A stretch of 64,000 nt of DNA from Naegleria gruberi (Eukaryota). The notes under the pieces were generated by a model, which saw only the letters and a list, made by a program, of their open reading frames with translations, was not told the DNA's origin and did not search any database. The position numbers and the translations under genes are program-made. Where the stretch lies: assembly GCA_000004985.1 (NCBI GenBank), contig GG738929.1; one strand, 5' to 3'. Each line of letters opens with the position of its first letter. The stretch's first letter is position 1. This document shows, one piece after another, positions 694 through 53,144 of this stretch.

Positions 694-1988
694 CTGAATT
701 TTTTTAATTATTTACAATTTTAAATGTGAAAAATGTTAGACAGGTGGTAGAGCATTAACAAGACTCCAAAAGATTAGAAGGAAACAATCGGTAAGTTTCG
801 TTTAAGCCATCATCAGTTTCATCTAACTAAATTTATTGTAACACTGTAATGTCAATCATTAAGACTCCATTAATAGGTTTCTACCAGTTGGTAAATTAGG
901 AACAACCATGTTGCTACTAGCAATTGAAATCTTGTCAAGTTCTGCTTGATAGGTATTTGCATAGGAACGTAAATTTGTGAACACAGTATCAAGGGTTGTT
1001 GTTGTCAATACTATATTATGCAGGTGGGGGTATGTTCAGTATTTTGTTGTTCTCAAAAGCCACAAAAAAAATTTACAAGTCCAATAAAAAACATATTTTG
1101 CAAATATCAGGTCTTTTACTTTGTGGAAGAACACAAAAAATGACAAATAAAACTCAATGGATGATACTCTCTTTTTATTCATCTTTTCGATTTGTTTTTA
1201 ATGAGAAAATTGATTTTGAGGTGTTTTGCAAGATTTATTCACTTATTTTACACCAACAACAAAACCAAAAATGCAATCAATAAAAAATATTGTGATTTTT
1301 TGGCAATCAATTTTTGGCTGGATTTTGTTCATGTTATTAAAGCTGTGCACTACTACATAAAATTGAGACCAGGTAGAAGTACACACAATACATCAAATCG
1401 TTCTAGTTGATCTCTAGAATTTGATTTTAGGTTGCGTGAGATTCTAGTATCTATAGTTTTGGAATTTGAATTGTTTTTAAGAAAAAAGAATCATCTTGGC
1501 CCAGTTTCTTGCTGAAGGTGAGTTTGGAAAACTGAGAGCAGTTGGATGAAGAGAGAATACACTAACATACGCAATACTGGGTCTAGTTTTCAAAAATCTT
1601 GTCGTCATGATTCTAGTATATCCCCTTTACATCGAACTCAACACTCGTATATGATTTTCTCAATATATACACAATAAAATCAATATGTCACAAGGCAATA
1701 ATATAGATGCACATAAATATTAGTAAATTTGAAATATTTACTGGTTTTTGTTGTTTATTGGTTGAGCTATTGAATTTTACCATTAATTTTCGCTAGCGGC
1801 AAGTCAACATTCCCCTCCCTTGATATTATTTGAGTTGAATAAATTCTGTAGTCACCTTACATGATTTAGCATAGACCATACGATTAGTTTTTTCTGTTCA
1901 TTTGCAGCCGGAATATCTTTTTTTATTATATTTTGAAAGGTTTGCTTTTGGAGCTGACACCCTAATATTAATCAACAACTCAATTTTC

Positions 1989-4900
1989 ATGAATAAGTCG
2001 TCATCTAAAAAAATGGAACAAGCCACCAGTTCTGAACCCACAGCAAACAAACAGTTTCGTGCTTACGTTACACAGCAAATATCTTCAATTCCAACAGCAT
2101 CACCAACATGTGCCAACTTTGCTGAACAACAAGATGTAGAAGAAGATCATGACTATCACACAAATGTCAACATTTATTGCCCTCATTGTAAATCATTTTT
2201 CTGTGAAAACTGTCATTCGTTATGTGTTTATTCTTCCTTGGAATCCAACAGTAAAATTCCCATGTCAAAAAAGAAAACAGTACAGGCCGAACATTTAAAA
2301 CATCAGTGGAATATCAATGAGGATTATCAACAAAATATCCAACAAGATGTGATGCAATTATTCATCGTTACGAACAATCTGGTTAGTATGATACAACGAT
2401 GGACAAATGACACAACTAACGTCAATCTACAGGACATTATTGACCAATACGAATTATTTAAAACAGCCACAAGCAAACATATCATCACTCCCTATTTCAA
2501 TAGAACATTTTTAGAACCGCTGACCCCTATTTGTGAAAAAATTTCTATTTTCCACAAAGCACAAGAACAGGTCAACAAATTCTCTGAAATGTTTAAAAAA
2601 TACAATAACAAAGCTCTTGATATAATGGATAGCTTTACTTTGGCTTCCACTGAAATGCGATCATTTTGTAAATCATACCTTAAGATTTCTAATGACAAAA
2701 TGGAGGAATATTTATCTCTAGCAAACACAGCAGAAAAGCTTAAATGGAATGCCATTAATTCCAAAAATCCAATGAAGTGTTGTGTTGTGGGAATTACTAA
2801 TTCTGGTAAAACTACTTTAATGAATGCAATTCTTGGAATGAACCTTTTGCCAAGTAAGGAAGGGAGATGTACAATTGCTAATACAGAATTAAGATATGCA
2901 GATTATGATAAACGTAAAATTGAAATCAAGGAAGAACATGGTACTTTCAACACACTTTCTCAATTTACTTCAGAGTATCTGATGCAACATGAATCAATTC
3001 CTGAAGAAGTTGTATCTACTTTTGGTGTTTCTGAAAAAACCAAATCAGAACAGAAGAAGGATAGAGAATCTCAAAAAACTATAAGAGTTCATTGGGATTC
3101 TCTCTTGTTAAAAACAGGAATAGCCTTTAGTGATACACCTGGATATGATGATATTTATGAAGAGGAAGTTTTATTCAACACTTACAAAAGACAATCAAAG
3201 AAAAAAGCTTTGCCTAAAAATGTAATGGTCAACCCTCAAACATTAGAATTTATTCAAGAATCTGAACTTGTTATTCTAGTAGTTGATATTAATCACACAT
3301 ATACTTCCAAAGATGCTGTTCTAAACTTGTTGGACATTGATGAATTAAAAGGCAAACAAATCATGGTTGTGATGAATAAGTGTAACATGTTTGGAAGTAT
3401 TGGAAAACGTGAAGACAGAGGTTGGGAAAGTTTCATTCACTATTGTGAAGAATATGAAAATACAAAAACTGCATCATCACCTCCATTATTATTACAATTT
3501 TACAAAATGGTAAACAATACTCATGAAAAAGCTAGAACAACATTTGAAGCATGTCTGCTTAATCATATTGATATGATGAGTACAAAAGGTATTTCTGTAA
3601 ACCAAATATATCCATTATCTGCTATGGAATCCCTTTGTTGTAAAGTAGAAGGAACTGAATTGGATTTGCCGTTCACTCTATTTGAAAAAGCACTATTTAA
3701 TATTATGGAAGATATTACAAAGAAGCGTATGTCTAATTTTGCTTCTGTTGCACACTTTTCAGTCAATACATTCCTGAGATCAACTTTGCTATGCAAAAAT
3801 TGGCATGTAAAGATGTATCAAATGCAACTCGAAAAGAAAAAACAACTGGAGGACATATCAAGTCTTGTTGAAAAGTTCAGAGAACGAATTCAACAAATTA
3901 TTCAAGATTTAAGGCAGGACATTATTGAAGTTTTTGAGAGAACATCGAGTCAAAGTAGTTCCAAGAAAATTGAAGAAGCCATGCATATTATTCACACAAA
4001 AGTTTCTGTTGAATTTAAAGAATTCTTGAAGGAACGTATTGCACAAGATCCCAAGTTATCTGTTTCAGATTGGGCCTACATAATTTCCATAACAATATTT
4101 GCAATTCCTATTTCAATAATTTTGCTTGGTATTGCGGTTCTATTAGTCCCAGTGTTGATGCCTATCATGTTTCCATATGTAATGGTAAAAACAATTTTGG
4201 ACATGGTAACAGATTTAAAAAAGAAAAAGAAGAGCAATATTATTGATGAACTAGTTTATAAAAGTGAGAGAATTCAAGTAAGTGAGGAAGAATCAGATAG
4301 TGCTGAAAACGATACTGATGACGTTCCAGAAGTACTCTCCACAACATTATTGGCTCTTGATTCACAAAATCTAGATGTAAATCAAGTCATCCAAAAGATA
4401 ATGCAGAGTTATCCTGATATGTTTTGTCTAGAAATTGAAAAGCATCTAATATCTAAAGTTGAAAATGAGTACAACGACAAACTGAAAACATTTAACTTTG
4501 TACTTTGTAAAGATGGGAAAGAATTAGCATTTTTTAATGCCTGGAAAGAGTTTCAAAAAGATCAGAATGGATGTGAACAGCTTTACAATTACTATTGCAA
4601 GACTTCATCTTTGTTTTTTGATATTAACACAAAATTTTCACTTTCAAATTTGAAATCTTTTGAATTTTGTGGACACGGAGCATTTGGTAAAACCTATCGT
4701 TTAAATAATATTACTGCAATCAAGTATATTTCTACAATTAAGCTTGCTGAACATATTTTAGATAGAGAACTATTTTATAATTCACAACTTTCACATGCAC
4801 ATATTGTTAAAAGCATGCTAATTAAAAAGGAAGAAACTGAAAACGCTTTAAACGGTTACATTTATCAAGAGTATCTCCCACAAACTCTTTCACAATGGGC

Positions 4901-5483
4901 TCTGAACAAACCAATTAACTATAAGAAAGCTCTTAGATATGCTTGTGAAATAGCACTTGGTATGAAATATATTCAATCTTGTAATATCATGCATAGAGAT
5001 TTAGACAAGTCAAACATTATGATTGACAAATTTGATCATATCAAAATTATTGATCTAGGTGTAGCAAAAGAAATGGTTGATAATGCACACACAGCAAATC
5101 AAGGAAAATATAAAACAATGGCACCAGAAGTAAAACGCTCTGGATCTGACTTTGCAATTTATGATTTTAGATGTGACGTTTATTCCTTCGGAATAGTGGT
5201 TAAAGAATTGCTTGATGGTTATGACAGTAGTGAAATTTCATTATTATTAGAGAGATGTTTGGAGAAAGATTTTAAGAATAGAATTGGTGATTGGAATGAA
5301 ATAATATTTACTTTATATAAGAGTTATGAGATGTATGAATTAGATGTGGAACCAACTGAATATTCTAACCAATTGAAAATTGAGGTACAGGAAGTTCAAG
5401 AAGAATCACAAATTGATATTGAGGTATTGAAAAAGGAATTGAAAGATAAGAAAATCATACCAAAAAATTGCATTGTGCAATAA
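1989..5483 (+). CDS. multidomain signalling protein: B-box-like Cys/His zinc finger, P-loop GTPase (ROC/AIG1/IRG-like, DTPG type), predicted TM segment, C-terminal TKL-like protein kinase
   Basis: Track ORF 1902..5483 starts at TTG. The first ATG is at 1989 (MNKSSSKK). Zn-finger-like: YCPHCKSFFCENCHSLC. GTPase: G1 VVGITNSGKTTLMNAILG, G3 FSDTPGYDD, G4-like VVMNKCNMF. Hydrophobic stretch: AYIISITIFAIPISIILLGIAVLLVPVLMPIMFPYVMV. Kinase motifs: GHGAFGKTY, AIKYI, HRDLDKSNIMID, DLGVAKE, MAPEV, DVYSFGIVV. Single exon, TAA stop. Confidence 0.7.
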   Translation: MNKSSSKKMEQATSSEPTANKQFRAYVTQQISSIPTASPTCANFAEQQDVEEDHDYHTNVNIYCPHCKSFFCENCHSLCVYSSLESNSKIPMSKKKTVQAEHLKHQWNINEDYQQNIQQDVMQLFIVTNNLVSMIQRWTNDTTNVNLQDIIDQYELFKTATSKHIITPYFNRTFLEPLTPICEKISIFHKAQEQVNKFSEMFKKYNNKALDIMDSFTLASTEMRSFCKSYLKISNDKMEEYLSLANTAEKLKWNAINSKNPMKCCVVGITNSGKTTLMNAILGMNLLPSKEGRCTIANTELRYADYDKRKIEIKEEHGTFNTLSQFTSEYLMQHESIPEEVVSTFGVSEKTKSEQKKDRESQKTIRVHWDSLLLKTGIAFSDTPGYDDIYEEEVLFNTYKRQSKKKALPKNVMVNPQTLEFIQESELVILVVDINHTYTSKDAVLNLLDIDELKGKQIMVVMNKCNMFGSIGKREDRGWESFIHYCEEYENTKTASSPPLLLQFYKMVNNTHEKARTTFEACLLNHIDMMSTKGISVNQIYPLSAMESLCCKVEGTELDLPFTLFEKALFNIMEDITKKRMSNFASVAHFSVNTFLRSTLLCKNWHVKMYQMQLEKKKQLEDISSLVEKFRERIQQIIQDLRQDIIEVFERTSSQSSSKKIEEAMHIIHTKVSVEFKEFLKERIAQDPKLSVSDWAYIISITIFAIPISIILLGIAVLLVPVLMPIMFPYVMVKTILDMVTDLKKKKKSNIIDELVYKSERIQVSEEESDSAENDTDDVPEVLSTTLLALDSQNLDVNQVIQKIMQSYPDMFCLEIEKHLISKVENEYNDKLKTFNFVLCKDGKELAFFNAWKEFQKDQNGCEQLYNYYCKTSSLFFDINTKFSLSNLKSFEFCGHGAFGKTYRLNNITAIKYISTIKLAEHILDRELFYNSQLSHAHIVKSMLIKKEETENALNGYIYQEYLPQTLSQWALNKPINYKKALRYACEIALGMKYIQSCNIMHRDLDKSNIMIDKFDHIKIIDLGVAKEMVDNAHTANQGKYKTMAPEVKRSGSDFAIYDFRCDVYSFGIVVKELLDGYDSSEISLLLERCLEKDFKNRIGDWNEIIFTLYKSYEMYELDVEPTEYSNQLKIEVQEVQEESQIDIEVLKKELKDKKIIPKNCIVQ

Positions 5484-9112: not shown

Positions 9113-10251
9113 TTGTATACATGGCTGGTTCAGTTAAAATCCCAACTAATCCCCTCGCAACAATTTTCCTTTTACGAAAAAGGAACAATGCTGATTCCTC
9201 ACGAAAAGAAAGAAGTTGCACTCAACCTTATTCAAGATTTTCTCCAATCTCGAAAATTCGTTCGAATCAAACTGGTAGCTCAATTTATAGGAAAGCTGGA
9301 ATTCGCCTCTTTAGCAGAACAATACATAATGCCTCTGTTAAACAGATTACGAGTTTCAGTAGTAGGATGGTCAGTCTTTATGCTCATCAACAGAGGCCCC
9401 ATGACGGACCTAATAAGATTAAAGTCCATCATTTCAAACTCAAAAGGTTCTCTCCTAGATCTAAATCAACCTTTCCCAATTATAATCAATTCAGATGCTT
9501 CTCCTCAAGGATAAGGTGTCCACTCCTCAAACACTGTTATTATAGGAAGATTTCACACCCACGATCATATCAATTCGAAAGAAATGATGGCAATTCTTCA
9601 ATTCTTCATCGAAGCAAAATCACAAAAGCTCTTCCCAAGAGGAACCTATTTCGAGATAAGGTGGACAATTCAACTGCCTTCTCATACATAAGAAAAGGAT
9701 ATGGAACTTTCGAACACCTCGCTCAAATAGCAAGAAAAATTTGGAAAATTCTAATAGAATGTTGCTGGAGAATTGCAAAAGTAATTTACATTCCCTCAGA
9801 GAAAAATTCAATTGCAAACAAATTAAGCCTTTTAAGCGATTGGAAATCATCACCAGAATTGATAAATATGGTAGAAAAAGAATTCGGAAACCACACCATA
9901 GACAGATTTGCAACATCAGAGTCAGCAACAACGATCCATTTCAACTCTTTGTTAGAAAACGATGCGTTTCAAGAACTTTGGGAACAAAACTCAATCAATT
10001 ATTGTGTTCCTCCAATAGGTCTAATCCCACAAGCTCTATTTCACTTGATCCGATCAAAGGCCATAGGAACATTCGTAGTTCCTTATTGGCCAACAGCTTA
10101 CTGGTTCCCGATCTTGCTAAAGATATCTTTAGAACAGATACGTGTTCCGCTCCAATGGCTTATAACAGAGCATTACAACGAACTGCACAAACAATCAGAC
10201 AATATTTCGTTCATGGCGGTCAAAGTGAATGGAATGCTCAACTTTCAATGA
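9113..10251 (+). pseudogene. retrotransposon pol fragment (RT thumb, RNase H, DIRS-type MT-like region), broken by a frameshift near 9515
   Basis: Frame of 9113..9514: KFVRIKLVAQFIGKLEFASLAEQ (RT thumb-like), ending in PIIINSDASPQG, the start of the RNase H DAS motif. The reading then continues in the frame of 9121..10251: KGYGTFEHLAQIARKIW...IANKLSLLSDW...FGNHTIDRFATSESAT (RNase H C-terminal ADALSR/DRFA pattern). Then NYCVPPIGLIPQALFHLIRSKAIGTFVVPYWPTAYWFPILL, like the post-RNase H domain of DIRS/Ngaro elements. No RT palm (YxDD) survives upstream. The first ~130 aa of track ORF 9121..10251 are an out-of-frame overlap. Confidence 0.65.
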
Positions 10252-11141
10252 GATGTCAGGCTTTATCTACTGCTCTTGCAGAATCGACAAAGTATTCAGA
10301 ATTTTCTTATTTCTGTCTACTCCATAATTTAGACAAATCAGATGTTAGAGCCCCAGAATTATTCGCTTGCTATCTTGCGGTTCACAAGAAGCTCTACAGA
10401 TTGAATAGTTTGAAACCTACGTTGGATTTCTATTCAAATTTGGAAGGATGGTCCGTAAATTATTCTAATCAATTCTTTAGAATCAAACAAGGTTTGAATA
10501 AGTTTTATTCACGAGCCGATATTGTTAAACATAAGAGAAGTGGAATCTCTGCTCTCAATGTCAAGCAATTCATTGATAGGATCTCTATTAAAGACCCTTA
10601 TCTTCACATGTTGTCTTGTGCCATACTTTCCGTTGGCATTAGATTATTAGCAAGACCTGGTCAACTGGCTAATTTATCATGGTCTTGTGTTAAACTTGAT
10701 ACTCCTTTTATCGGTTGGGTTACTTTTGATCTTTCTGGTCACAAAACAGACCAATTATCTGACATGAAGAAACTCCTATTGAACCATAAAGAGGAAATAA
10801 GAAATACTGTCCAGTTTATAACCTTAGAAGATATGGATTATGTTAAACATATTAAGGAAGACGATTCTCCATTATTTTCGTTACTGTTTGATGAATATTT
10901 CACTCCTACTCAAATTTCTAATATTATTTCAAGCCCCATGAGCTCTATTGGTGTTCAAAACACTTCAGGCCATAGCCTTCGTATAAGTGCAGCTACTAAG
11001 CTGGCTTCTAAGGGTGTGTCTCAATCTATGATTGAGACAGCTGGTAATTGGGTGCCTAATTCAAAAATTAGATTGAGATATCAACGTAGAATTGGCCTAG
11101 CTACTCATGGTTTAACTACTTCTATTATGAGAACTGATTAA
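9741..11141 (+). CDS. DIRS-type tyrosine recombinase ORF (catalytic domain approx 10400..11141), overlapping the pol frame as in DIRS elements
   Basis: C-terminal half carries the tyrosine-recombinase box: LLARPGQLANLSW...SGHKTD...GHSLRISAATKLASKGVSQSMIETAGNWVPNSKIRLRYQRR. That is the R...K...HxxR...Y arrangement. The 5' third (9741..10260) only overlaps the pol frame. Confidence 0.65.
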   Translation: MENSNRMLLENCKSNLHSLREKFNCKQIKPFKRLEIITRIDKYGRKRIRKPHHRQICNIRVSNNDPFQLFVRKRCVSRTLGTKLNQLLCSSNRSNPTSSISLDPIKGHRNIRSSLLANSLLVPDLAKDIFRTDTCSAPMAYNRALQRTAQTIRQYFVHGGQSEWNAQLSMRCQALSTALAESTKYSEFSYFCLLHNLDKSDVRAPELFACYLAVHKKLYRLNSLKPTLDFYSNLEGWSVNYSNQFFRIKQGLNKFYSRADIVKHKRSGISALNVKQFIDRISIKDPYLHMLSCAILSVGIRLLARPGQLANLSWSCVKLDTPFIGWVTFDLSGHKTDQLSDMKKLLLNHKEEIRNTVQFITLEDMDYVKHIKEDDSPLFSLLFDEYFTPTQISNIISSPMSSIGVQNTSGHSLRISAATKLASKGVSQSMIETAGNWVPNSKIRLRYQRRIGLATHGLTTSIMRTD

Positions 11142-21570: not shown

Positions 21571-21624
21571 TGAAGATTCGTTGGTGGTTAACTGATATTA
21601 AAATATTTTCATAATGAATAAGAT

Positions 21625-21696
21625 TCCCGTGTAGTCCAATGGCTAGGATACCTGGCTTTCACCCAGGAGGTCCGGGTTCAATTCCCGGCATGGGAG
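21625..21696 (+). tRNA. tRNA-Glu (anticodon TTC)
   Basis: TCCCGTG-TA-GTCC-AATGGCTA-GGAT-A-CCTGG-CTTTCAC-CCAGG-AGGTC-CGGGT-TCAATTC-CCGGC-ATGGGA-G. 7-bp acceptor stem (one G.U), anticodon loop CTTTCAC gives UUC, T-loop TTCAATT. T-run follows 10 nt downstream. Confidence 0.9.
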
Positions 21697-21795
21697 AATC
21701 ATTTTGCTTTTATCAATTTTCTAATTTATACAAAGAGAAAAGGATTCAGTATTTTCTGTTTGCAACCTAGTTGTTAAATATTTTAGTATCATAAT

Positions 21796-22178: not shown

Positions 22179-23613
22179 ATGATCAAACGAAGCAGACAAG
22201 ATTTTGAAAATCCATTAATTTCGGAGGAACTACTCATGATCAATAATAATAACATGGAAGAGAAAGCAAAAAAGAAAAAAGTTGTACAAGAAATATTTTC
22301 AGATGACGTTTGCTTTGAAATAATTTCCATGATTGATTCGTGGTTTATTTTGAATAATTGTTCCTTGATTTCAAAACAATTCTTTAATGTGATCAAGGAA
22401 CGTTCAAAACTTGTTATTCAATTTAAAAAAAAATTTACAGAGAAAAGAATTGAATTATTAATGAAAAGTCAATTTATGAATAGTATTGTTAACGTTAAAT
22501 TTTCGAGAAAGTTGCTTGACTCTATAGAACAAGCCAAATTCATAAATGAAATGAAGCAATTAACATCACTTGATATTGGTGGAAATCAAATTGGTGCTGA
22601 AGGAGCCAAATTTATAAGTGAAGTGAAACAATTAACATCACTTAATATATCTTACAATCAAATTGGTGCTAAAGGAGTCAAATTCATAATTGAAATGAAA
22701 CAATTAAAATCACTTAACATTATTGGAAATCAAATTGGTGCTGAAGGAGTCAAATTGATAAGTGAAATGAAACAATTAGCATCGCTTAATATTGGTGGAA
22801 ATCAAATTGGAGATGAAGGGGTCAAATTCATACTTGAAATGAAACAATTAACATCACTTAATATTTGTCTCAATCGAATTGGTGCTGAAGGAGCCAAACT
22901 CATAAGTGAAATGAAACAATTAACATCACTTGATATTTGTTACAATCGAATTGGTACTGAAGGAGTCAAATTTATACGTGAAATGAAACAATTAAAATCA
23001 CTTAATATTAGTGGAAATCAAATTGGTGATGAAGAAGCCAAATTCATAAGTGAAATGAAACAATTAACTTCACTTAATACTTATAAAATCAAATTGGTGA
23101 TGAAGAAGCCAAATTCATAAGTGAAATGAAACAATTAACATCACTTAATATTTATAAAAATCAAATTGGAGATGAAGGAGTCAAATTCATAAGTGAAATG
23201 AAACAATTAACATCACTTAATATTTTTACAATCAAATTGGTGATGAAGGGGTCAAATTCATAAGTGAAATGAAACAATTAACATCACTTAATATATCTTA
23301 CAATCAAATTGGTGATGAAGGAGTCAAATTCATAAGTGAAATCAAACAATTAAAATCACTTGATATTTATAACAATCAAATTGGTGATGAAGGAGCCAAA
23401 CTCATTAGTGAAATGAAACAATTAACAGCACTTAATATTTATAACAATCAAATTGGCGATGAAGGAGCCAAATTCATAAGTGAAATGAAACAATTAACAG
23501 CACTTAATATTTATAGCAATCGAATTGGTACTGAAGGAGTCAAATTGCTAAGCGAAATGAAACAATTAACAGCACTTGTTATTAATAACCAACAGATGAA
23601 ATCTATTAATTAA
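22179..23613 (+). CDS. RNI-like leucine-rich-repeat protein built from about 14 tandem 24-aa (72-bp) repeats. The frame is broken twice (about 23095 and 23225), so this is a pseudogene or a mis-assembled repeat array
   Basis: Repeat unit EMKQLTSL(N/D)I(G/S)(G/Y)NQIG(A/D)EG(A/V)KFIS. Track ORFs 22179..23120 and 23269..23613 are the same array in different frames. The breaks coincide with single-base length differences inside otherwise identical repeats (tataaaatcaa vs tataaaaatcaa). Confidence 0.55.
22540..23590. repeat. 72-bp near-perfect tandem repeat array (coding LRR units)
   Basis: Unit aaatgaaacaattaacatcacttaatat...aatcaaattggtgatgaaggagtcaaattcataagtga recurs head-to-tail with few substitutions. 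Confidence 0.8.
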
Positions 23614-25065: not shown

Positions 25066-28000
25066 TTACTGTTGGAAATATTTTTTGATCTTTTTCAGAT
25101 CATTAAAGATTTCTGAAAACTTTGGTCTGCCACTTGGATCTTGAGACCAACATTTTTCCATCAAGCTTACAAACAACTCTACACCATCAAGTATTTGTTT
25201 CTTTTGTTCATCTGAAAGGTTTGTATAATTATTAAAAAGATAAATATCCGCCCATTGTGATAGCTCATTCCTGTTTTCAAAAGGGACAAGTGGTCTTAAA
25301 CCTTCCTTTGCCACCTTGAAAATAATATTTAATCCATTATTACTGTTATTCAATCCAAAATTCCATGATTTTCCATTTGAAAAGAAATGAATTTTTTTTG
25401 AATCCTCATTCAAATATGGGTTTTCCTCAAAGAATAATTCATACATTATTATGGAAAATGAAAAAACATCTATTTTTGTGAGTAAATCTCTATCCTCAAA
25501 GCTGTCTTGAGCTTCTCCTAAAGATACCTCTGGAGCCATGTAAAAAAGAGTGCCCAATGTCATTGTAAATATAGACTGTTTCATTGAATTAGTGGAAACG
25601 ATTTTGGAAAGCTGTTTAAATTCAAAATATTAGTTCTTCAATACTAAAATAACATACACCAAAATCACAAACTTTTGCCTGTCCTGTCGCATTAATGAGA
25701 ACATTTGCTGGCTTTAAATCTCTGAGTAAATTATCAATTAATAAAACAATTGATACAGTAAAAACTAACCTATGAATTAATTTTGGTTTCAATCCATGTA
25801 AATATTTCATACCTGAGGAAATGTCCAATAATATTTGAGCTTTTTGTGAAAGTGTCAGAAAATCTTTTCCACTTCTACAGTCATTGATAATCTTCTCTAA
25901 ACTTCCTCTTTCGCAATATTCTACAACCATGAATCTCTTTGACTCGGTTATACATACTCCGTAGAAAGTGACAATATATGGATTTCTTAAATTTACAAGC
26001 AATGAAACCTCCCTTTCAAAATCCTCTCCATTAGTTTCATTTTCCTCTGATTTTTGATGGAACGACTTGATAGCTACATTGGTAGTCTCCCAACATTTTG
26101 CTAAAAATATGGAACCATAAGCTCCCTCTCCAATTTTCTTTTCTATTTTCAAGTCATCTGAATTAATGAGAAAGTTCATTGACTTTTTGTTCTTTATGAT
26201 TGAATCTTTTGGATCGTAATTGATTCCATAATTTTTGTGAAATTCAGACTTTAAAAGTCTTTTTTCAATATCCTCTTCAGCTTTTTCAAGCTTTTTTAAT
26301 TTTTTAAGTTTGTCCTTAATTTTCCACAATTTCCTAAAAGCAAAAGTTATTAATAATCCAATTATTATACCAGATATAAGAGCTAACAATACACCAACCA
26401 CCGACGTTGATATGAGAACCTCCATAGGAAATGAAGGAGCACACACACCTTCTTGAAGGGAATATCCATGAGGACATGGTGTAATTATCACAGTAATTGG
26501 TATAGATCTGGAAGTAATTTTCAGTAGTATTGGAAACTTGGATTCACTAGGTTGAGATGGTGCCTCAGAAAATGAAATATTGATACCATTATCTATGATA
26601 CTGTAGTCACATTTTGGTATATAGAGAGATGAATTTGAGATAGGTTCTATATCCTCTCTGAAAATATTTACCAAATTTCCATAATAATCTGCTGATTTCA
26701 AAATTTCAATTTTAGCATATTGACCTAAATGCAAATTAAGTGTGGCTGAATTATTAGTAGCAACCAAGTATTTTCCATCAATTCCAAAGTAGGTAGTTTG
26801 AATAGCATAAATAAATTGTATAGAAGATGCCATGTTATCTCCATAAAAACCAGCAGAATTATTTTTCAAATCTGTACCATCGAAATAACCATTTATAGAA
26901 AACACGCCTCCGCCAGCTATCTTTGCATGATTTCCCTCAATGAAACTCTTGGCATCTACAAGCTTTCTATTATCGTTGCTTGTGAATACAGCTCCTCCCC
27001 AAACAGCATAATTTCCTGTCGCGTTCACATTGTAAAATGTAATTATGCTCCTGAGTGAGATAGCGCCTCCAGATCCCTCACACGAGTAGAATCCTTTACA
27101 GTAGCTTTTATCAATATTAGGGTAATGGTTGATTCCATTGTCTCTAAATACTGAATAGGTAATTTGTGAGTGAGAATAATCATTTGAATTTGGGAAAACA
27201 CTGACCATAGCCACAGCCCCTCCTGATATTGTAGCTACATTCGAGACGAATGTTGAACGATCTATAGATAACATTGTTGAATCAGAAACTGCAACAGCTC
27301 CACCACTTCCATTCACAGCACTGTTACTGTCAAATATAGAATCCGCAACCACAAAGAATTCAGAGTCAACAAATACCGATCCTCCATTATCATTTGATAT
27401 CTGGTTGTCTAAAAATCTGGAATTACCAATTTTTGCACTTGAAGCGTCAATTAAATGTACAACTCCACCAATATTACCTGTTGACTCACATTCATCCATT
27501 ACAAACTCATTAACTCGTTCTACGAAAAGTATCCGTGTTTTAGCAGCATTTCCAATTATTTTGACTCTTGATATTGATACGTCGGATGTGTACTTTAGAG
27601 AAATCCAACCTCTACTTAGATTTAACGCCTGACAGTTATCCAATATTATGTTTAAAATCATTTCTGCATAAATTAAAAATGGTTTTTTACCTATAAGTAG
27701 TTCACCGTTTTCTCTTGAAGAAATGAATTTAGAGCCACTAATGTCTGTTTTCTGTATTGAGCTAAGCTTTAGAATACTGATGGAAGGATTACTATCAATA
27801 AATACTAGATTATTCATTTGTAAATGGTCAACATTTAAAATAGTCCAAATGGTACTAGGAGGATCGTTTCCATTTAAAATCATACTATTTAATATTTTCA
27901 CATTTGTCACTATATTGATAGATCCAGAAAGACCTTTCAGATATGATTGATCTATTATAACTCCGCTAGCATATTTTATATAAAAAAGACATGATATCAA

Positions 28001-28687
28001 TGTAGAATTATAGACATGTAGTTTTTGTGAAGTAATTCCCACGTTGGTAAGATGGGAGTTTGTCACAAAATTAAGATCCGCTGTTAATGATTGTAGGGAA
28101 AGCTTGTGAAAATTTGTTAAAGATATTAAGTTTAAATTAAATTCACCATCAGTAGAAAATAGAATAGCATTAATATCAGGGCATTTGTAAGTGAATATTC
28201 GATTTCCAAATGATTTAAACTCCAGTTGAATGGCCACATTGTTGGAAATTACTGCAAAGTTTGACTTGAAAAACAAATCTAATCCGCAATTTTCAACCAA
28301 ATTCTTATCAAAATCATCAAGTATAAATATATTGGCTGTAAAAACCATTTTCAACTTGTTCGTAACTAATTCATTCCAATTTAACAAAATTTCATTTTCA
28401 ATTATTGGTTTCAAAACATATCGAAATGCTAATTTGGGATTATTACACGGAATATCCATCTGTAAACCACATTTGAAGGGTGGATTTAAAAAAGATGAAT
28501 TTAAATATATCGTAGTATTATACTCCTTTTCCGGCTTGTTGTTTGATCCTATTGTTTTTAATTCTCCTCCTCCACCTCCGAATAAAACATCAGTGTTTTC
28601 CATCGTGTCCACCAATTGTAATTTTAAATAAATCATCAAAATGATGAAAATAAAATTCGATAAATATGAAGAGATACTTTGAGGCAT
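25066..28687 (-). CDS. receptor-type protein kinase: signal/anchor, large beta-helix (PbH1 / polymorphic-membrane-protein-like GGA repeat) ectodomain, TM, cytoplasmic TKL-like kinase. 2 exons (28687..25658 and 25575..25066; intron 25657..25576, 82 nt, GTATGT...AAACAG)
   Basis: Ectodomain repeats GSGGAVAVSDS, SGGAVAMVS, GSGGAISL, WGGAVFTS, GGGVFSI. TM VVGVLLALISGIIIGLLITFAF. Kinase GEGAYGSIFLAK, VAIKSF, HRDLKPANVLI, DFG|intron|SIFTMTLGTLFYMAPE, DVFSFSIIMYELF. Splicing joins track ORFs 25622..28687 and 25066..25584 in frame (about 1179 aa). Confidence 0.8.
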
Positions 28688-29488: not shown

Positions 29489-31732
29489 ATGAACCCCAAG
29501 CCGACTCTATTTCTCGTTTTTCTTCTTTTCGTTAATCTATTGTCTTGCGTATTTGGACAGACCACCACCTACAATATTACTACTATTGCTGGTGGTGGCA
29601 CAGGAGAAGGCGGTCCAGCAAGTACTGCCTTTTTATATACGCCAAACAGTGTGGCATTTGGTCTGAAAGGCGAATTGTACATTGCCGACGATTATAGAAT
29701 TCGTAAAATAGAGAATAATACCATTACAACTATAGTAGGGAGTGCCAGTAAGGGCTTTAGTGGAGATGGTGGGCTCTCCACTCTGGCTAAGGTGCAAAAT
29801 CCAACTGGCATCGTTGTTGGCACTAGAGGTGAGATTCTTTTTGTGGATTCTGATAGAATTAGAAAGATAGAGAATGGTATTATTACAACCATTGCTGGTA
29901 CTGGTGATTCAAGATTTGGTGGAGATGGTGATTTAGCAACGAAGGCACAACTAAATTCTCCTAGAGGTATCGCGATTAGTTCAACAGGTGAAATTTATAT
30001 TGCTGACACTTATAACCATAGAATTCGTAGAATTGCATTGAATGGTACCATTAATACTGTAGCAGGTACTGGTGATTCAAGATTTGGTGGAGATGGTGAT
30101 TTAGCAACGAAGGCGCAACTAAATTATCCTATGGGTATCGCGATTAGTTCAACAGGTGAAATTTATATTGCTGACACTTTTAACGAAAGAATTCGTAGAA
30201 TTGCATTGAATGGTACCATTAATACTATAGCAGGTACTGGTGTCTTAGGACTTAGTGGAGATGGTGATTTAGCAACGAAGGCACAACTAAACACTCCTAG
30301 AGGAATCGCGATTAGTTCAACAGGTGAAATTTATTTTGCTGACACCAGTAACCAAAGAATTCGTAGAATTGCATTGAATGGTATCATTGATACTATAGCA
30401 GGTACTGGTGATCCAAGATTTGGTGGAGATGGTGATTTAGCAACGAAGGCACAACTAAATTCTCCTAGAGGTATCGCGATTAGTTCAACAGGTGAAATTT
30501 ATATTGCTGACACTTATAACCAAAGAATTCGTAGAATTGCATTGAATACTAATATTTCAACCTTTGCCGGTAGTGGGTTTGGATATAGTGGATATGTTGG
30601 AGATGGTGGTTTATCTACTGATGCCCTATTGAATACACCCTTATCTGTAGCTTGTAGTTCAAATGGGGAAATTTATATTGCTGACACTTATAACCATAGA
30701 ATTCGCAAAATTTCACTTAATAATACCATTACAACAATTGCTGGTACTGGAGACAGTGGGTTTAGTGGTGATGGTGGTTTGGCTATCAATGCAAGATTAA
30801 GTTCACCTGCAGATATTGTTGTTAATTCAAATGGTGTAATTTACTTTTCTGATTACGATAATAACAGAATTCGTAAAATAGCATCTAATGGTATTATTAC
30901 AACCGTTGTAGGATCAGGTGTAATTGGAAGTGGGGGCGATGGTGGTTTAGCTATTAATGCCCAACTTAATCGACCTTATGGAATTACATTTAATTCAAAT
31001 GCAGAAATGTACATTGTAGAAAGAATGGGTAGCAGAATTCGTAAAGTTGGTGTAAATGGTATTATAACAACCGTTGCTGGAAGTGATATAGCAAGTGGGG
31101 GAACAACCAGCGTTGGTAGTTTGGCAACTAAAACTGTACTGAATGCACCTTCAAAAATTGTCATTAACTCTAACAATGAGATAATCTTTTCAGACTCGTT
31201 ACACGGTAGAGTTCTTAAAATTGGTTTAGATGGTATTATTAGTGGAGTTGGAAATAGTTTTCGTATGCCCATTGGTATAGCAATAGGTTCAGATGGTGAA
31301 ATGTATATTGCTGATACGAGCATTTTTGCAATACTTAAAATTGACAAGAAAGGAGTGCTTTCAACTATTGTAACTGGATTGGAATCTCCACGTGGCATTA
31401 CATTAGATTCAAAGGGTAATATTTATGTCACAGATTTATATGTTATACATAAAATAACACCAGGTCAACAACCATCTCCCTATAAATCCACTCAACCTGA
31501 TACTTCAATGAAACCAACTCAGCCTGATACTTCAATGAAACCAACTCCTGGAATATCAAGCAAACCAACTCCTGGAATATCAAGCAAACCAACCCCAGGT
31601 CTCTCATTAAAACCAGCCCAGTCAATGAATGTTCCTACACCAAAAAATAGTGAAAGAGTTTCAGAAGCTCTTTCAGTTGTATCTGGTTGGCTTTTTACTT
31701 TTATAATCTTTATTTCAGTTTTCCAATTTTAG
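29489..31732 (+). CDS. secreted NHL-repeat (6-bladed beta-propeller type, about 11 repeats) protein with C-terminal Pro/Thr-rich mucin-like repeats and a hydrophobic tail (GPI-anchor-like)
   Basis: Signal peptide MNPKPTLFLVFLLFVNLLSCVFG. Repeated GEIYIADTYNHRIRRIALNGTI units (NHL signature). C-terminal KPTQPDTSMKPTQPDTSMKPTPGISSKPTPGISSKPTPGLSLKP, then SVVSGWLFTFIIFISVFQF. Single exon. Confidence 0.8.
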   Translation: MNPKPTLFLVFLLFVNLLSCVFGQTTTYNITTIAGGGTGEGGPASTAFLYTPNSVAFGLKGELYIADDYRIRKIENNTITTIVGSASKGFSGDGGLSTLAKVQNPTGIVVGTRGEILFVDSDRIRKIENGIITTIAGTGDSRFGGDGDLATKAQLNSPRGIAISSTGEIYIADTYNHRIRRIALNGTINTVAGTGDSRFGGDGDLATKAQLNYPMGIAISSTGEIYIADTFNERIRRIALNGTINTIAGTGVLGLSGDGDLATKAQLNTPRGIAISSTGEIYFADTSNQRIRRIALNGIIDTIAGTGDPRFGGDGDLATKAQLNSPRGIAISSTGEIYIADTYNQRIRRIALNTNISTFAGSGFGYSGYVGDGGLSTDALLNTPLSVACSSNGEIYIADTYNHRIRKISLNNTITTIAGTGDSGFSGDGGLAINARLSSPADIVVNSNGVIYFSDYDNNRIRKIASNGIITTVVGSGVIGSGGDGGLAINAQLNRPYGITFNSNAEMYIVERMGSRIRKVGVNGIITTVAGSDIASGGTTSVGSLATKTVLNAPSKIVINSNNEIIFSDSLHGRVLKIGLDGIISGVGNSFRMPIGIAIGSDGEMYIADTSIFAILKIDKKGVLSTIVTGLESPRGITLDSKGNIYVTDLYVIHKITPGQQPSPYKSTQPDTSMKPTQPDTSMKPTPGISSKPTPGISSKPTPGLSLKPAQSMNVPTPKNSERVSEALSVVSGWLFTFIIFISVFQF

Positions 31733-43196: not shown

Positions 43197-46100
43197 ATGA
43201 TTAACACAGGGAAGAGTGAGAGTCCTACATTTCGGAAAGATGCTCACTGCCCAGAGAGAAGACATGCAGTAGTAGGCGTTGATCCATTCAACAATAATTT
43301 ACAAACAAAATCTGAAACTTTCTCTTGGCTTCAAAAAGAAAATAACAAGACTGACGATAAATTCCTATTACCAAATAACAGCAGTTCTTCTACTGCAAAT
43401 GATACACATAGACTCTCTTCCGGAGATTTGGTAAATTCAATTACTGTTGAAGATGAAGGAGCAAAAAAAGTTTTGGTTGTAGATGATGATCGGGTAGCTC
43501 GTCAAGTTTTAACCAAGCTCTTGGAACAACTTGGTTTTCAAGGTATGTAATCTTCATTTGAATGTAATATGTTTATCTCTGATTGTATGACATTAATGCA
43601 TGACCTTACAACGCTCATTACATTTATGGTGTCTCTACAAAACGTACATGTAGTGAAAGCTGTCGAGGGAGGTAAACAAGCATTGGAAGTGTTAAGAGAA
43701 GAGGGTAATAATTATCATCTTCTCCTTGTAGATGTACTCATGCCTGATATGGATGGATTGCAACTGCTTAAAATTTTCAGACAAGCCTACTCTGAAGACA
43801 TGCCAATAATTAGTATGTATTTTAATGAATATGTTTTTGTTAACACGTTGGATAATAGTGGTTTCATCAAGTGAGGACCCCGATACAATTAATCAATGTT
43901 TCCAAAGTGGAGCTGAAGACTTTTTACAAAAGCCTGTTCAATTAGAAATTTTGAAAAGAAGAGTTAATATGTGTCTTGAGGACAGACTCAGACGCAGAAA
44001 AGAAAAAGCATATCAAGAAATGCTCCAAAATGAAAGAATCAATAGAAAGAAACTTACACTTCGTGTAAAGGAGCAAGAAAAGGAATTGGAAGAAATTAAG
44101 AATCAAATTAATAATACTGTAGAAACACCAATGCAGGTTGTTATGAAAACCATTGCTGATCTTATGGAAGGAAAGTATTCAATTGAAAATTCTAAGGGAG
44201 CTTTGATTGCTGTCCTTAGGTCACTAGGTTCTAAGGATTTATATAAACCAGCATTTTCCAATTTATTAAGAAAGGGAGAATTGGACGACAATACTAGAAG
44301 ATGGCTCCAAACAGAATTCATGAACGAAGGAGACAATAATGTAAATGGCAACAAATCTAACACACCAATATCTAATGAATCATCACCAACTACCGAAAAA
44401 AATTCACAACAAACTAAGGAGCAATCACAATCTTCATCAGCATCTAATCAACAAGTTTCATTATATCACAAGCAAGTTGATGATATTGTAACCAAAAACA
44501 CTTTACCAGGTGATTTAGGAAGTCATACATTTGATACTTTGAAATACTCACATGATCAATTAATCCAATTCATTGTCCAAATGTTTGAAAACTTGGGATT
44601 AATTGAAACATTCAAAATTCCACCAAAAGAACTTGTTGATTTATTAACAGTCGTAAGAGAATCATACAAACACAACCCATACCACAATTTTACTCATGCT
44701 GTAGATGTAACTCAATTTGCTTACCACCTTCTTCTTGTAGATAGAATTTCACAAATGTTTTCACCAATGGAAAAGTTTGCTCTGATGTTTTCTGCCATAA
44801 TGCACGATGTGGGACATCCTGGAGTTAACAATAACTATTTAATTAATATTAAGGATGAATTGGCTCTCATTTACAATGATGTTAGCGTGTTAGAAAATCA
44901 CCATGCATCACAAGCCTTTTACCTCCTTCTCAAACATAATATTTGCTCCAATCTTTCCAAGGATGAATTCAAAGAGTTCAGAAGACTGGTTATCAGTACA
45001 ATTTTATGTACAGACATGTCTCACCACTTTGAAATTCTCACCAAGTTCCAAACAAGACTTCAAACTGGTACGCTCTCTAAGGAAAGTAAGGAAGATAGAC
45101 TCCAACTGATGGGAGTAATTTTAAAGTGTTCTGACGTCAGTAATGCTCTCAGACCATTTGACGTTTCTGAAAAGTGGTCAAATGTCTTGTTGGAAGAATT
45201 TTTCTTACAGGGAGACAGTGAGAGAGACCGTGGATTACCAATCTCTCCTCTAATGGACAGAAGATCTGTTGACAAACCAAAGTCCCAGCTTAACTTTATT
45301 GATTACATTGCTGCACCACTTTTCAACAATTTAATCACTTATTGCTCATGCTTGAACACAACACTCGGAGAAACTTTGCAAAAAAATAGATCCTTGTGGG
45401 AAGAGAGGGCACAAGCTGCTTCGGGCATGGGAAGTAATCAACAAAAAGAAGATATTAGTAGTACCCATACAACAACAACAACAAAAAATACAATAACTAC
45501 AACAACAACAACAAAAACCTCCACTACAACAACTACAACAAATTCACAAGAAAAACCTGTACTCACTGGATCAATGCCAAGTCATTTCGCTAAAGCCAAA
45601 GGATTTACCATCCTGATTATTGATGATGAAAGTGCTCAATGTGCAAAGAAATTAGAACAACCTTTACTTTCACTTAGTTATACAGTTGTATCAACAACAT
45701 TAGCAAAAACCGAGAGTGAATTAGTCAAGTCAAAAGCAGACATTATTCTTTTAAATTACGATATTGTACAATCAACAGAATTGGTGCAAAAAATTAGATT
45801 GGTATCTCCGATTATACCTATAATTACAATTTCTTCCAATTCTGTACAAACCGATTGGTGCCAACAAAGTTTTGTAAGACCAGTAGACACTACAGCATTG
45901 ATTCACTCTGTTGAACATCATATTGAATTATCATTGGATAGGGTACAACCAATAGATTTGGAAATTGCTCTTGAGCAAACAGGTGGAGATGAGGAATTCT
46001 TGTGGGATATGTTGAATGAACTTATTGGTGCAGGAAGTGAGCAAATCGAGAAAATTAAACAATCAACAAAGACTTTGGATTGGGCATCTATGGAGCTTAA

Positions 46101-46281
46101 TTCTCACTCTCTGAAAGGTTCATCAGCACAGCTTGCTTGCAAACCATTATCGCAAGCTGCTTTATCAGTGGAAACGAGCTCTAAGAATCAAGACTCTGCA
46201 AATCTTGAACAAAAGATTGCTTTAATAGAAAAACGACTCAACGATTTAGCTAACTTTGTACAAAAACATCAGCAACAATGA
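43197..46281 (+). CDS. RegA-like two-component cAMP phosphodiesterase with fused phosphorelay module: receiver (REC) - class I 3',5'-cyclic-nucleotide PDE - second REC-like domain - HPt. 3 exons: 43197..43542, 43654..43812, 43859..46281. Introns 111 nt (GTATGT...GTAG) and 46 nt (GTATGT...AATAG)
   Basis: REC1, spliced across both introns: KVLVVDDDRVARQVLTKLLEQLGFQ|VKAVEGGKQALEVLREEGNNYHLLLVDVLMPDMDGLQLLKIFRQAYSEDMPII|MVSSSEDPDTINQCFQSGAEDFLQKP. PDE: YHNFTHAVDVTQFAYHLL...HDVGHPGVNNNYLINI (class I HD signature)...DMSHHFE. REC2-like: GFTILIIDDESAQ...ADIILLNYDIVQ...PIITISS...FVRPVD. HPt: MELNSHSLKGSSAQLACKPLSQAA. Total about 975 aa. Track ORFs 43197..43550, 43569..43874 and 43825..46281 are the three exons. 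Confidence 0.8.
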
Positions 46282-52945: not shown

Positions 52946-52987
52946 ATTGATTTTTACATGTAAGGAAATTGTTTAAAAAGATTATTA

Positions 52988-53062
52988 ACCCGCTACCAGG
53001 ACTTGAACCTGGATCATGCGGAATGAATAAGTCGCATATTCTAACCATTGAACTACAGCGGG
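52988..53062 (-). tRNA. tRNA gene with atypical anticodon arm. Anticodon unresolved, possibly Ile-UAU with a micro-intron, or a pseudogene
   Basis: Minus-strand read: CCCGCTG-TA-GTTC-AATGGTTA-GAAT-ATGCG-ACTTATTCATTC-CGCAT-GAT-CCAGG-TTCAAGT-CCTGG-TAGCGGG-T (75 nt). Acceptor, D and T arms are well formed (T-loop TTCAAGT). The anticodon stem ATGCG/CGCAT encloses a 12-nt loop ACTTATTCATTC instead of 7. Confidence 0.65.
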
Positions 53063-53144
53063 TTGTGTAAATTATCTAAAAATATAATCATGATCAGCAT
53101 ACGCTTACAAATAAAAACATACCGAATGCAATGTTTATTGAAAA

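Follow-up and report, generated by a model that had tools for sequence, protein, structure and literature searches.

Dynamin-like proteins (DLPs) are known as mechanochemical remodelers of membranes, and their output is mechanical. In a 64,000-nucleotide stretch of contig GG738929.1 of Naegleria gruberi (assembly GCA_000004985.1; this whole stretch is called the window below), a gene on the plus strand (1989..5483) encodes a 1,164-residue protein that is very probably a fusion between a DLP, of the class formed by the bacterial dynamin-like proteins (BDLPs) and the mitofusins, and a protein kinase. The general action of the dynamin family is that its G domains dimerize or oligomerize when GTP-bound (PMC2862293). 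In BDLP, a hydrophobic element between the middle domain and the GED acts as a lipid-binding, membrane-inserting paddle; mitofusins hold their transmembrane (TM) helices at the position of this paddle, and the BDLP GED is equivalent to mitofusin HR2 (PMC2862293). A further described family is typified by TbMfnL, a mitofusin-like dynamin superfamily protein of Trypanosoma brucei that occurs in various eukaryotes and prokaryotes, Euglena longa among them, and combines a GTPase domain with a pair of consecutive TM helices near its C terminus (bioRxiv 10.1101/2023.06.28.546890).

The explanation that best accounts for the Naegleria protein, to which we assign a probability of roughly 0.55, is a membrane-anchored DLP with an N-terminal extension of ~200 residues and a C-terminal eukaryotic-type kinase, which may act in assembly-driven signaling. 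In full-text searches of the literature, neither a DLP-kinase fusion nor a BDLP- or mitofusin-type protein of Naegleria turned up. The domain combination is new to the literature searched, and the public record is an unnamed predicted protein.

Reading frame, G domain and kinase

The open reading frame (ORF) extends from 1902 to 5483 (+), with the first ATG at 1989, and the complete coding sequence is a single exon of 1,164 codons plus stop. The chance of 1,193 stop-free codons, computed from the base composition of the window, is ~1e-40. The product is 100% identical to an uncharacterized NCBI entry of 1,156 residues, "predicted protein [Naegleria gruberi]", which starts at Met9 of our frame (nt 2013). 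The match identifies the window as nuclear DNA of N. gruberi. This gene model is collinear with ours at 100% identity and is consistent with the single-exon structure that had been proposed in an earlier, sequence-only reading of the window. The motifs quoted in that reading (the Cys/His cluster, GITNSGKTT, DTPG, NKCN and the kinase motifs) were all located by translation, and its central observation, that one chain joins a P-loop GTPase to a protein kinase and also contains a membrane segment of strong hydrophobicity, was borne out.

A unique architecture, and one that has no exact gene record in the assembly index, might in principle arise as an artifact, with separate DLP and kinase genes joined by mis-assembly or by an unrecognized intron or stop codon. 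However, one uninterrupted frame runs from residue 1 to 1164, in which the kinase N-lobe begins only a few residues after the DLP tail, the independent NCBI model agrees over its whole length, and the GC content of the gene matches its flanks, being ~32% throughout the window. We consider an artifact very improbable. Long ORFs occur on either strand of the window, several of them clearly interrupted by introns.

As judged from profile matches and conserved residues, the GTPase (G domain, residues 258-470; 2760..3398, +) belongs to the dynamin superfamily and, within it, to the BDLP/mitofusin class. Pfam Dynamin_N (PF00350) matched residues 265-464 with E = 4.1e-17 (63.2 bits against a gathering cutoff of 27) and spanned profile positions 2-167 of 168; MMR_HSR1 was a weaker second match. 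The best sequence relative of residues 1-870 in the PDB was Nostoc punctiforme BDLP (2j68, E = 4.9e-6), and the match to Mfn1 was marginal (E = 0.13). When the whole protein was aligned by hhalign with a bacterial DLP profile built from 17 members, a probability of 99.5% was obtained (E = 3.1e-22, 321 columns), with residues 258-650 paired to profile columns 56-399, that is, to the G domain and ~100 residues of the stalk. Translation placed G1 (GITNSGKTT) at residues 268-276 (2790-2816, +), G3 (DTPG) at 382-385 (3132-3143, +) and G4 (NKCN, with Asn for the usual Asp) at 463-466 (3375-3386, +). In DLP alignments the switch-I motif NLLPSKEGRCT, with T295, falls within the G domain on the same strand and carries the BDLP-type signature NLLPS-x4-CT. 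The residues that are invariant across these alignments (G273, K274, N279, L287, T295, D382, P384, G385 and N463) are kept.

The sequence-only reading had placed the GTPase closest to the ROC, AIG1 and IRG types and had taken the Roco kinases as the model for the protein. Neither assignment agrees with these results. At E ≤ 1, no Pfam match to Roc, COR, AIG1 (PF04548), IIGP (PF05049), LRR or ankyrin was obtained over the whole protein, and we reject an AIG1/IRG identity. If the protein were a Roco/LRRK-type kinase, a Roc GTPase and a COR domain would regulate the kinase, and the hydrophobic stretch would be a buried COR-like helix. No such buried helix and no clean Roc-COR-kinase architecture was found. 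Instead, the score of Dynamin_N passes its gathering cutoff, the sequence past the G domain aligns with the stalk of BDLP, all sequence relatives found are dynamin-family proteins, and DLP structures beat LRRK by ~6 Z units. In addition, the hydrophobic stretch, described below, is membrane-grade and atypical of a core helix. We regard a Roco identity as scarcely tenable.

An exhaustive HMMER search of residues 1-870 against 1.84 billion representative proteins returned 52 non-self matches (E from 1e-7 to 1e-3). All are limited to the G1-G3 region, and Dynamin_N is carried by each of the 52. Nearly all named relatives are bacterial entries annotated "dynamin family protein" (Ruminococcus, Caryophanon, Desulfovibrionaceae, Oscillospiraceae); one is from the mollusc Lottia gigantea. 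Word-indexed protein searches retrieved the protein itself, three bacterial kinases, bacterial DLPs including cyanobacterial BDLPs, and generic GTPases. Among the 1.84 billion representatives no full-length or non-G-domain homolog was present (only the protein itself scored below 1e-10), the libraries searched held no ortholog and no paralog of the non-G-domain parts, a scan of viral contigs found no relatives, and a scan of metagenome contigs gave only an unrelated kinase match (L001). The suggestion that the protein is lineage-specific is borne out to this extent, since no full-length relative was found in these libraries. PADLOC profiles matched generic kinase families and, weakly, LeoA (E = 6.4e-7), which is not evidence of a defense role.

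Only one other protein among the 52 relatives combines Dynamin_N with a kinase-like domain. This is P0043, a 1,534-residue JGI metagenome protein whose dynamin G domain is LeoA-like and is joined to a kinase-like domain and to a C-terminal patatin phospholipase similar to bacterial defense effectors. Its G domain is 29% identical to that of the Naegleria protein. P0043 differs in that its kinase-like domain lacks the catalytic Asp (HRG), in the presence of the patatin and in the absence of a TM-grade segment. The two kinase domains match marginally (BLASTP E = 0.03), and because they are not specifically related we take P0043 to be an independent fusion. In its own right, it appears to represent an undescribed DLP-pseudokinase-phospholipase architecture.

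The kinase domain occupies residues 885-1110 (4641..5318, +), as delimited by Pfam and PDB alignments. Residues 893-1077 were matched by two Pfam models, Pkinase (E = 5.3e-26; 92 bits, cutoff 31.7) and PK_Tyr_Ser-Thr (E = 4.8e-23). The motifs identified are GHGAFG (895-900), the Lys (K912 or K918), E927, HRD (1002-1004) and N1009 within the catalytic loop HRDLDKSN (4992-5015, +), DLG (1022-1024; 5052-5060, +), MAPE (1044-1047; 5118-5129, +), D1063 and R1098, together with DVYSFGIV. The catalytic Lys, Glu, HRD-Asp (D1004), Asn (N1009) and DLG-Asp (D1022) are kept, as are APE and the residues of subdomains IX and XI; DLG for DFG is found in active kinases of the TGF-beta-receptor type. The kinase is probably active. 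The catalytic loop has Asp at the position of the Lys of Ser/Thr kinases, with a Lys one position later.

By alignment, the C-lobe lacks ~25 residues between helix F and subdomain XI, in the area of helices G and H, because the Pfam match reaches only profile positions 6-193 of 263, all PDB kinase alignments end at residues 1075-1089, and D1063 (subdomain IX) is separated from R1098 (subdomain XI) by 35 residues, compared with ~60 over the equivalent interval of PKA. Of the earlier description of a complete catalytic core with DLG, the catalytic residues and DLG therefore stand, but the canonical loop and the full C-lobe do not. The same is true of its assignment to the TKL group: MAPE and DVYSFGIV look TKL-like at the level of motifs, but PDB matches are evenly spread over a bacterial PknB-type Ser/Thr kinase (7.5e-15), ZAK (1.3e-14), PKA (2.2e-14) and Src-family kinases such as LCK (3e-14), and since these E-values are essentially tied the kinase is not assignable to a group. 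An acidic, Glu/Gln-rich tail (residues 1111-1164 plus stop; 5319..5483, +) ends the protein.

Ahead of the G domain, the Cys/His cluster CPHCKSFFCENCHSLC (residues 64-79; 2178-2225, +) lies in a low-complexity N terminus that was modeled at a predicted local distance difference test score (pLDDT) below 50. Its spacing is C-x2-C-x4-C-x2-C-H-x2-C, with more His residues at 54, 57 and 66. A B-box-like zinc finger had been proposed here. Hidden Markov model searches of residues 1-130 gave no zf-B_box match even at E ≤ 10, and we reject this assignment; the only matches were sub-threshold ones to IBR (E = 0.0076; 16.7 bits, cutoff 24.3), nanos and CHY. The cluster may form a small zinc-binding knuckle. 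It is followed by a helical extension (residues ~95-255; 2271..2753, +), modeled by AlphaFold2 (AF2) as long helices with pLDDT 50-70, for which no homolog was found among the 1.84 billion proteins. BDLPs have ~70 residues ahead of the G domain, and the helical extension of the Naegleria protein is much longer.

Hydrophobic element and topology

Downstream of the G domain, a helical middle or stalk region (residues 471-694; 3399..4070, +) is supported by predicted helices and, up to residue 650, by the hhalign alignment with the first stalk helices of bacterial DLPs. It leads into an uncharged hydrophobic element, W695-V733 (4071..4187, +), which is the only TM-grade segment of the protein. 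The element contains no charged or amide residue, and its 19-residue Kyte-Doolittle mean reaches 2.86. G714 lies at its exact center, with 19 residues on each side, and prolines are present at 707, 721, 725 and 729. The hydrophobic stretch of the sequence-only reading is thus present, but it is 39 rather than 35 residues long. Next comes a post-membrane region (residues 734-880; 4188..4628, +) with a KKKKK patch, an acidic linker and helices predicted only at low pLDDT (<50); its position is that of GED/HR2, whose helices in BDLP/mitofusin-class proteins fold back against the neck and trunk bundles.

We compared this layout with that of the single-headed bacterial DLPs retrieved (~600-790 residues). 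The hydrophobic element begins 427 residues past the P-loop, compared with 383-510 in bacterial DLPs of 600-720 residues. Its length of 39 residues compares with typically 14-46 in bacterial DLPs and 34 in cyanobacterial BDLPs, and the 147 residues between the element and the kinase N-lobe compare with C-terminal tails of 84-155 residues. Because the position and length of the element and the length of the tail all fit, we conclude that the DLP module (residues ~200-880) is, in layout, collinear with a whole bacterial DLP, with the kinase directly appended at its C terminus. By analogy with BDLP and the mitofusins, W695-V733 is most plausibly a membrane paddle or TM hairpin.

This arrangement bears on what had seemed a paradox, namely that GTPase and kinase would be separated by a membrane if a TM segment lay between them. 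The paradox is probably only apparent, as the element sits at the paddle/hairpin position of DLPs, and a hairpin or paddle leaves both of its flanks on one side. We consider it likely that GTPase and kinase share the cytosolic side. Both enzymes need cytosolic nucleotides. The flank C-terminal to the element, which contains KKKKK, is strongly basic, with six Lys/Arg against two Asp/Glu over 15 residues. The protein lacks an N-terminal signal peptide, and its sole hydrophobic segment begins only after 694 residues. On these last two grounds, a receptor-like kinase with an extracellular GTPase was rejected.

The same DLP-kinase could instead cross the membrane once, N-out/C-in, which would leave the GTPase in the cytosol and place the GED-like region and the kinase elsewhere, for example in the mitochondrial intermembrane space or an organelle lumen. 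Hydrophobicity alone favors this arrangement over a hairpin: the best predicted TM helix is one strong segment, residues 698-720 (~-3 kcal/mol), and the second arm, residues 715-733, is Pro-rich (P721, P725, P729) and makes a weak TM helix on its own (~+2.5 kcal/mol; both energies are on a Hessa-type scale). On the other hand, the positive-inside rule would place the basic flank in the cytosol, 39 residues are long for one pass, with G714 exactly central, and a Hanks-type kinase with TKL-like motifs would be unusual in a lumenal or extracytosolic space. A single-span N-out/C-in topology has been reported from biochemical data for human Mfn1 and Mfn2, and Fzo1 has two spans (PMC5800796); in BDLP and Fzo1 the GED/HR2 stays on the side of the G domain (PMC2862293, PMC5800796). 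We hold a single span to be quite unlikely here.

Possible mode of action

With a hairpin or paddle, a simple sequence of events can be proposed. The element would anchor the protein with both enzymes in the cytosol, and GTP-bound G domains would dimerize or oligomerize on or between membranes. Their assembly would bring kinase domains together, allowing trans-autophosphorylation and phosphorylation of substrates, and membrane assembly, tethering or stress would be converted to a phosphorylation signal. Alternatively, the kinase may feed back on DLP assembly and tune it. Coupling of kinase activation to DLP assembly, proposed by analogy with the general action of the family, is a tentative suggestion that we put somewhat short of an even bet. 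We are more doubtful still of the wider claim that this is the first dynamin-class kinase of the type "GTPase activated by dimerization", in which DLP assembly, tethering or damage sensing at a membrane is read out as phosphorylation, convergently with Roco/LRRK; it is somewhat unlikely. In a more extreme variant of this claim, the segment would cross the membrane once, and the GTPase in one compartment would signal to the kinase in another through the membrane of an organelle. The DLP part may be derived from a bacterial DLP, and by analogy with bacterial DynA and LeoA the protein may have a role in membrane surveillance or defense.

Besides the hydrophobicity of the element and the topology of human mitofusins, several results count against a membrane-anchored DLP that signals through its kinase. 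Only the G domain and the first stalk helices can be aligned: hhalign of residues 651-880 with the bacterial DLP profile or its GED gave a non-significant probability of 17%, and neither PF21808, the bacterial DLP helical domain, nor Fzo_mitofusin was matched in Pfam at E ≤ 1. Both AF2 models were poor. The full-length AF2 model (16 sequences; mean pLDDT 48, kinase modeled all-helical) was discarded because MAFFT had placed bacterial kinases on the G domain and BDLP tails on the kinase. A model of residues 1-880 (18 sequences) reached a mean pLDDT of 51, with 60-80 in the G domain and less than 50 from residue 696 onward, and was used only for coarse ranking of folds. In Foldseek searches of the PDB with this model, BDLP came first (E = 1.1e-12), followed by Mfn1, Mfn2, IniA, Campylobacter DLP1/2 and Fzo1, and all of these ranked above MxA, dynamin and EHD; the ranking is in line with the sequence results but adds little independent weight because the input alignment consisted of bacterial DLPs, which makes it partly circular. 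Finally, this is a single orphan gene of one amoeboflagellate, and both of its catalytic domains have substitutions that could lower activity.

These substitutions invite the view that the protein is a catalytically degenerate young fusion, in which at least one of the two enzymes is inactive and whose role is that of a membrane scaffold alone, if it has any function under selection. The G4 Asp normally reads the guanine base; with NKCN this specificity residue is lost, and nucleotide binding could weaken or change. Similarly, the kinase could have little or no activity, given its HRDLDKSN loop, with Asp for Lys, and its shortened C-lobe. The lack of an ortholog or paralog among the 1.84 billion representatives and the pseudokinase-like HRG loop of P0043 point in the same direction. 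Against this, a 1,164-codon ORF is intact in a genome of 32% GC, both domains otherwise keep every residue that binds metal, nucleotide or phosphate, Asn at the G4 Asp position also occurs in bona fide bacterial DLPs (2 of 19 aligned, NRIN and NRWN), and, as noted above, DLG is compatible with activity. We judge a degenerate fusion unlikely.

How G-domain dimerization activates a kinase is the unresolved core question for LRRK2 and other Roco proteins. If assembly-driven signaling by the Naegleria protein is true, GTP-driven DLP assembly can also serve as a signaling switch, and the protein would offer a simple single-chain system in which to ask this question. It would also add to the evidence that BDLP/mitofusin-type DLPs exist outside opisthokonts and plants, in unexpected architectures.

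Neighboring genes and comparison with known systems

Several other features of the window were recorded. A second large kinase gene, a 1,021-residue ORF at 25622-28687 (-), probably continues in 25066-25584 (-); an intron is suggested because the domain breaks inside the catalytic loop (LIHR ... DLKPANV). The N-terminal 840 residues of this protein have no Pfam match, and it is unrelated to the DLP-kinase apart from the kinase fold. An 818-residue ORF at 43825-46281 (+) encodes a cyclic-nucleotide phosphodiesterase (PDEase_I, E = 1e-86) that has part of a response-regulator receiver at its N terminus and an Hpt phosphotransfer domain at its C terminus. It probably has an upstream exon, as the receiver matches only profile positions 73-110. 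The product resembles a RegA-type phosphodiesterase plus Hpt, an unusual two-component/cAMP fusion.

At 29489-31732 (+) lies the ORF of a 747-residue NHL/teneurin-type beta-propeller protein (TEN_NHL, E = 5e-89), whose propeller repeats are visible in the DNA as 168/336-bp tandem repeats (29872-30750). Another tandem array, at 22535-23589, contains 14.7 copies of a 72-bp (24-residue) unit at 87% identity, within and just past the ORF 22179-23120; its consensus resembles a unit of leucine-rich repeats. At 9121-11141 (+), two ORFs that overlap in different frames (9121-10251 and 9741-11141) point to a single gene split by an intron, and the first of them has a weak, sub-threshold match to a Dam-type N6-adenine methyltransferase (E = 1.7e-4; 21.7 bits, cutoff 28.1). 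ARAGORN identified a normal tRNA-Glu(TTC) at 21624-21697 (+) and made a call with a four-base anticodon ("attc") at 52987-53063 (-), which may represent a tRNA with an intron or may be spurious.

Among known systems, the bacterial DLPs (we compared Nostoc punctiforme BDLP, PDB 2J68/2J69, with IniA, LeoA, DynA and Campylobacter DLP1/2) provide the closest G-domain sequences. They share with the Naegleria protein the motif N-A-x-L-G-x-x-L-L-P-S-x4-C-T, a profile match that extends into the stalk, a similar hydrophobic element at a similar distance from the P-loop and a tail of ~100-150 residues. The Naegleria protein differs in being eukaryotic, in ~200 extra N-terminal residues with the Cys/His cluster, in a shorter middle region, in a more hydrophobic, TM-grade membrane element, in its NKCN G4 and in the lack of a PF21808 match. 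To our knowledge, a C-terminal protein kinase is present in no characterized BDLP.

With the mitofusins and Fzo1, which are among the top structural matches, the protein shares the order of its parts (G domain, helical region, TM region and HR2-like tail). A long N-terminal extension is likewise present in Fzo1, whose TM region is a hairpin of two helices (PMC5800796). The similarity of sequence is marginal, as seen with Mfn1, Fzo_mitofusin is not matched, and a kinase is appended. T. brucei, E. longa and Naegleria are discobans, and the TbMfnL family, compared here by its description, is the nearest described eukaryotic family outside opisthokonts: like the Naegleria protein, it is a non-opisthokont DLP with a GTPase and a C-proximal TM region. 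TbMfnL differs in having a mitochondrial targeting sequence, in ending soon after its TM helices and in having no kinase (bioRxiv 10.1101/2023.06.28.546890).

The Roco proteins (LRRK2, LRRK1, the Dictyostelium Roco kinases and DAPK1) resemble the Naegleria protein, as proposed here, in joining a dimerization-activated GTPase to a kinase with TKL-like motifs on one chain. Their GTPase is a Ras-like Roc domain, whereas that of the Naegleria protein is of the dynamin type and is accompanied by no COR, LRR, ankyrin or WD40 domain. Unlike the Roco proteins, which have no membrane-inserting element, the Naegleria protein has a putative one.

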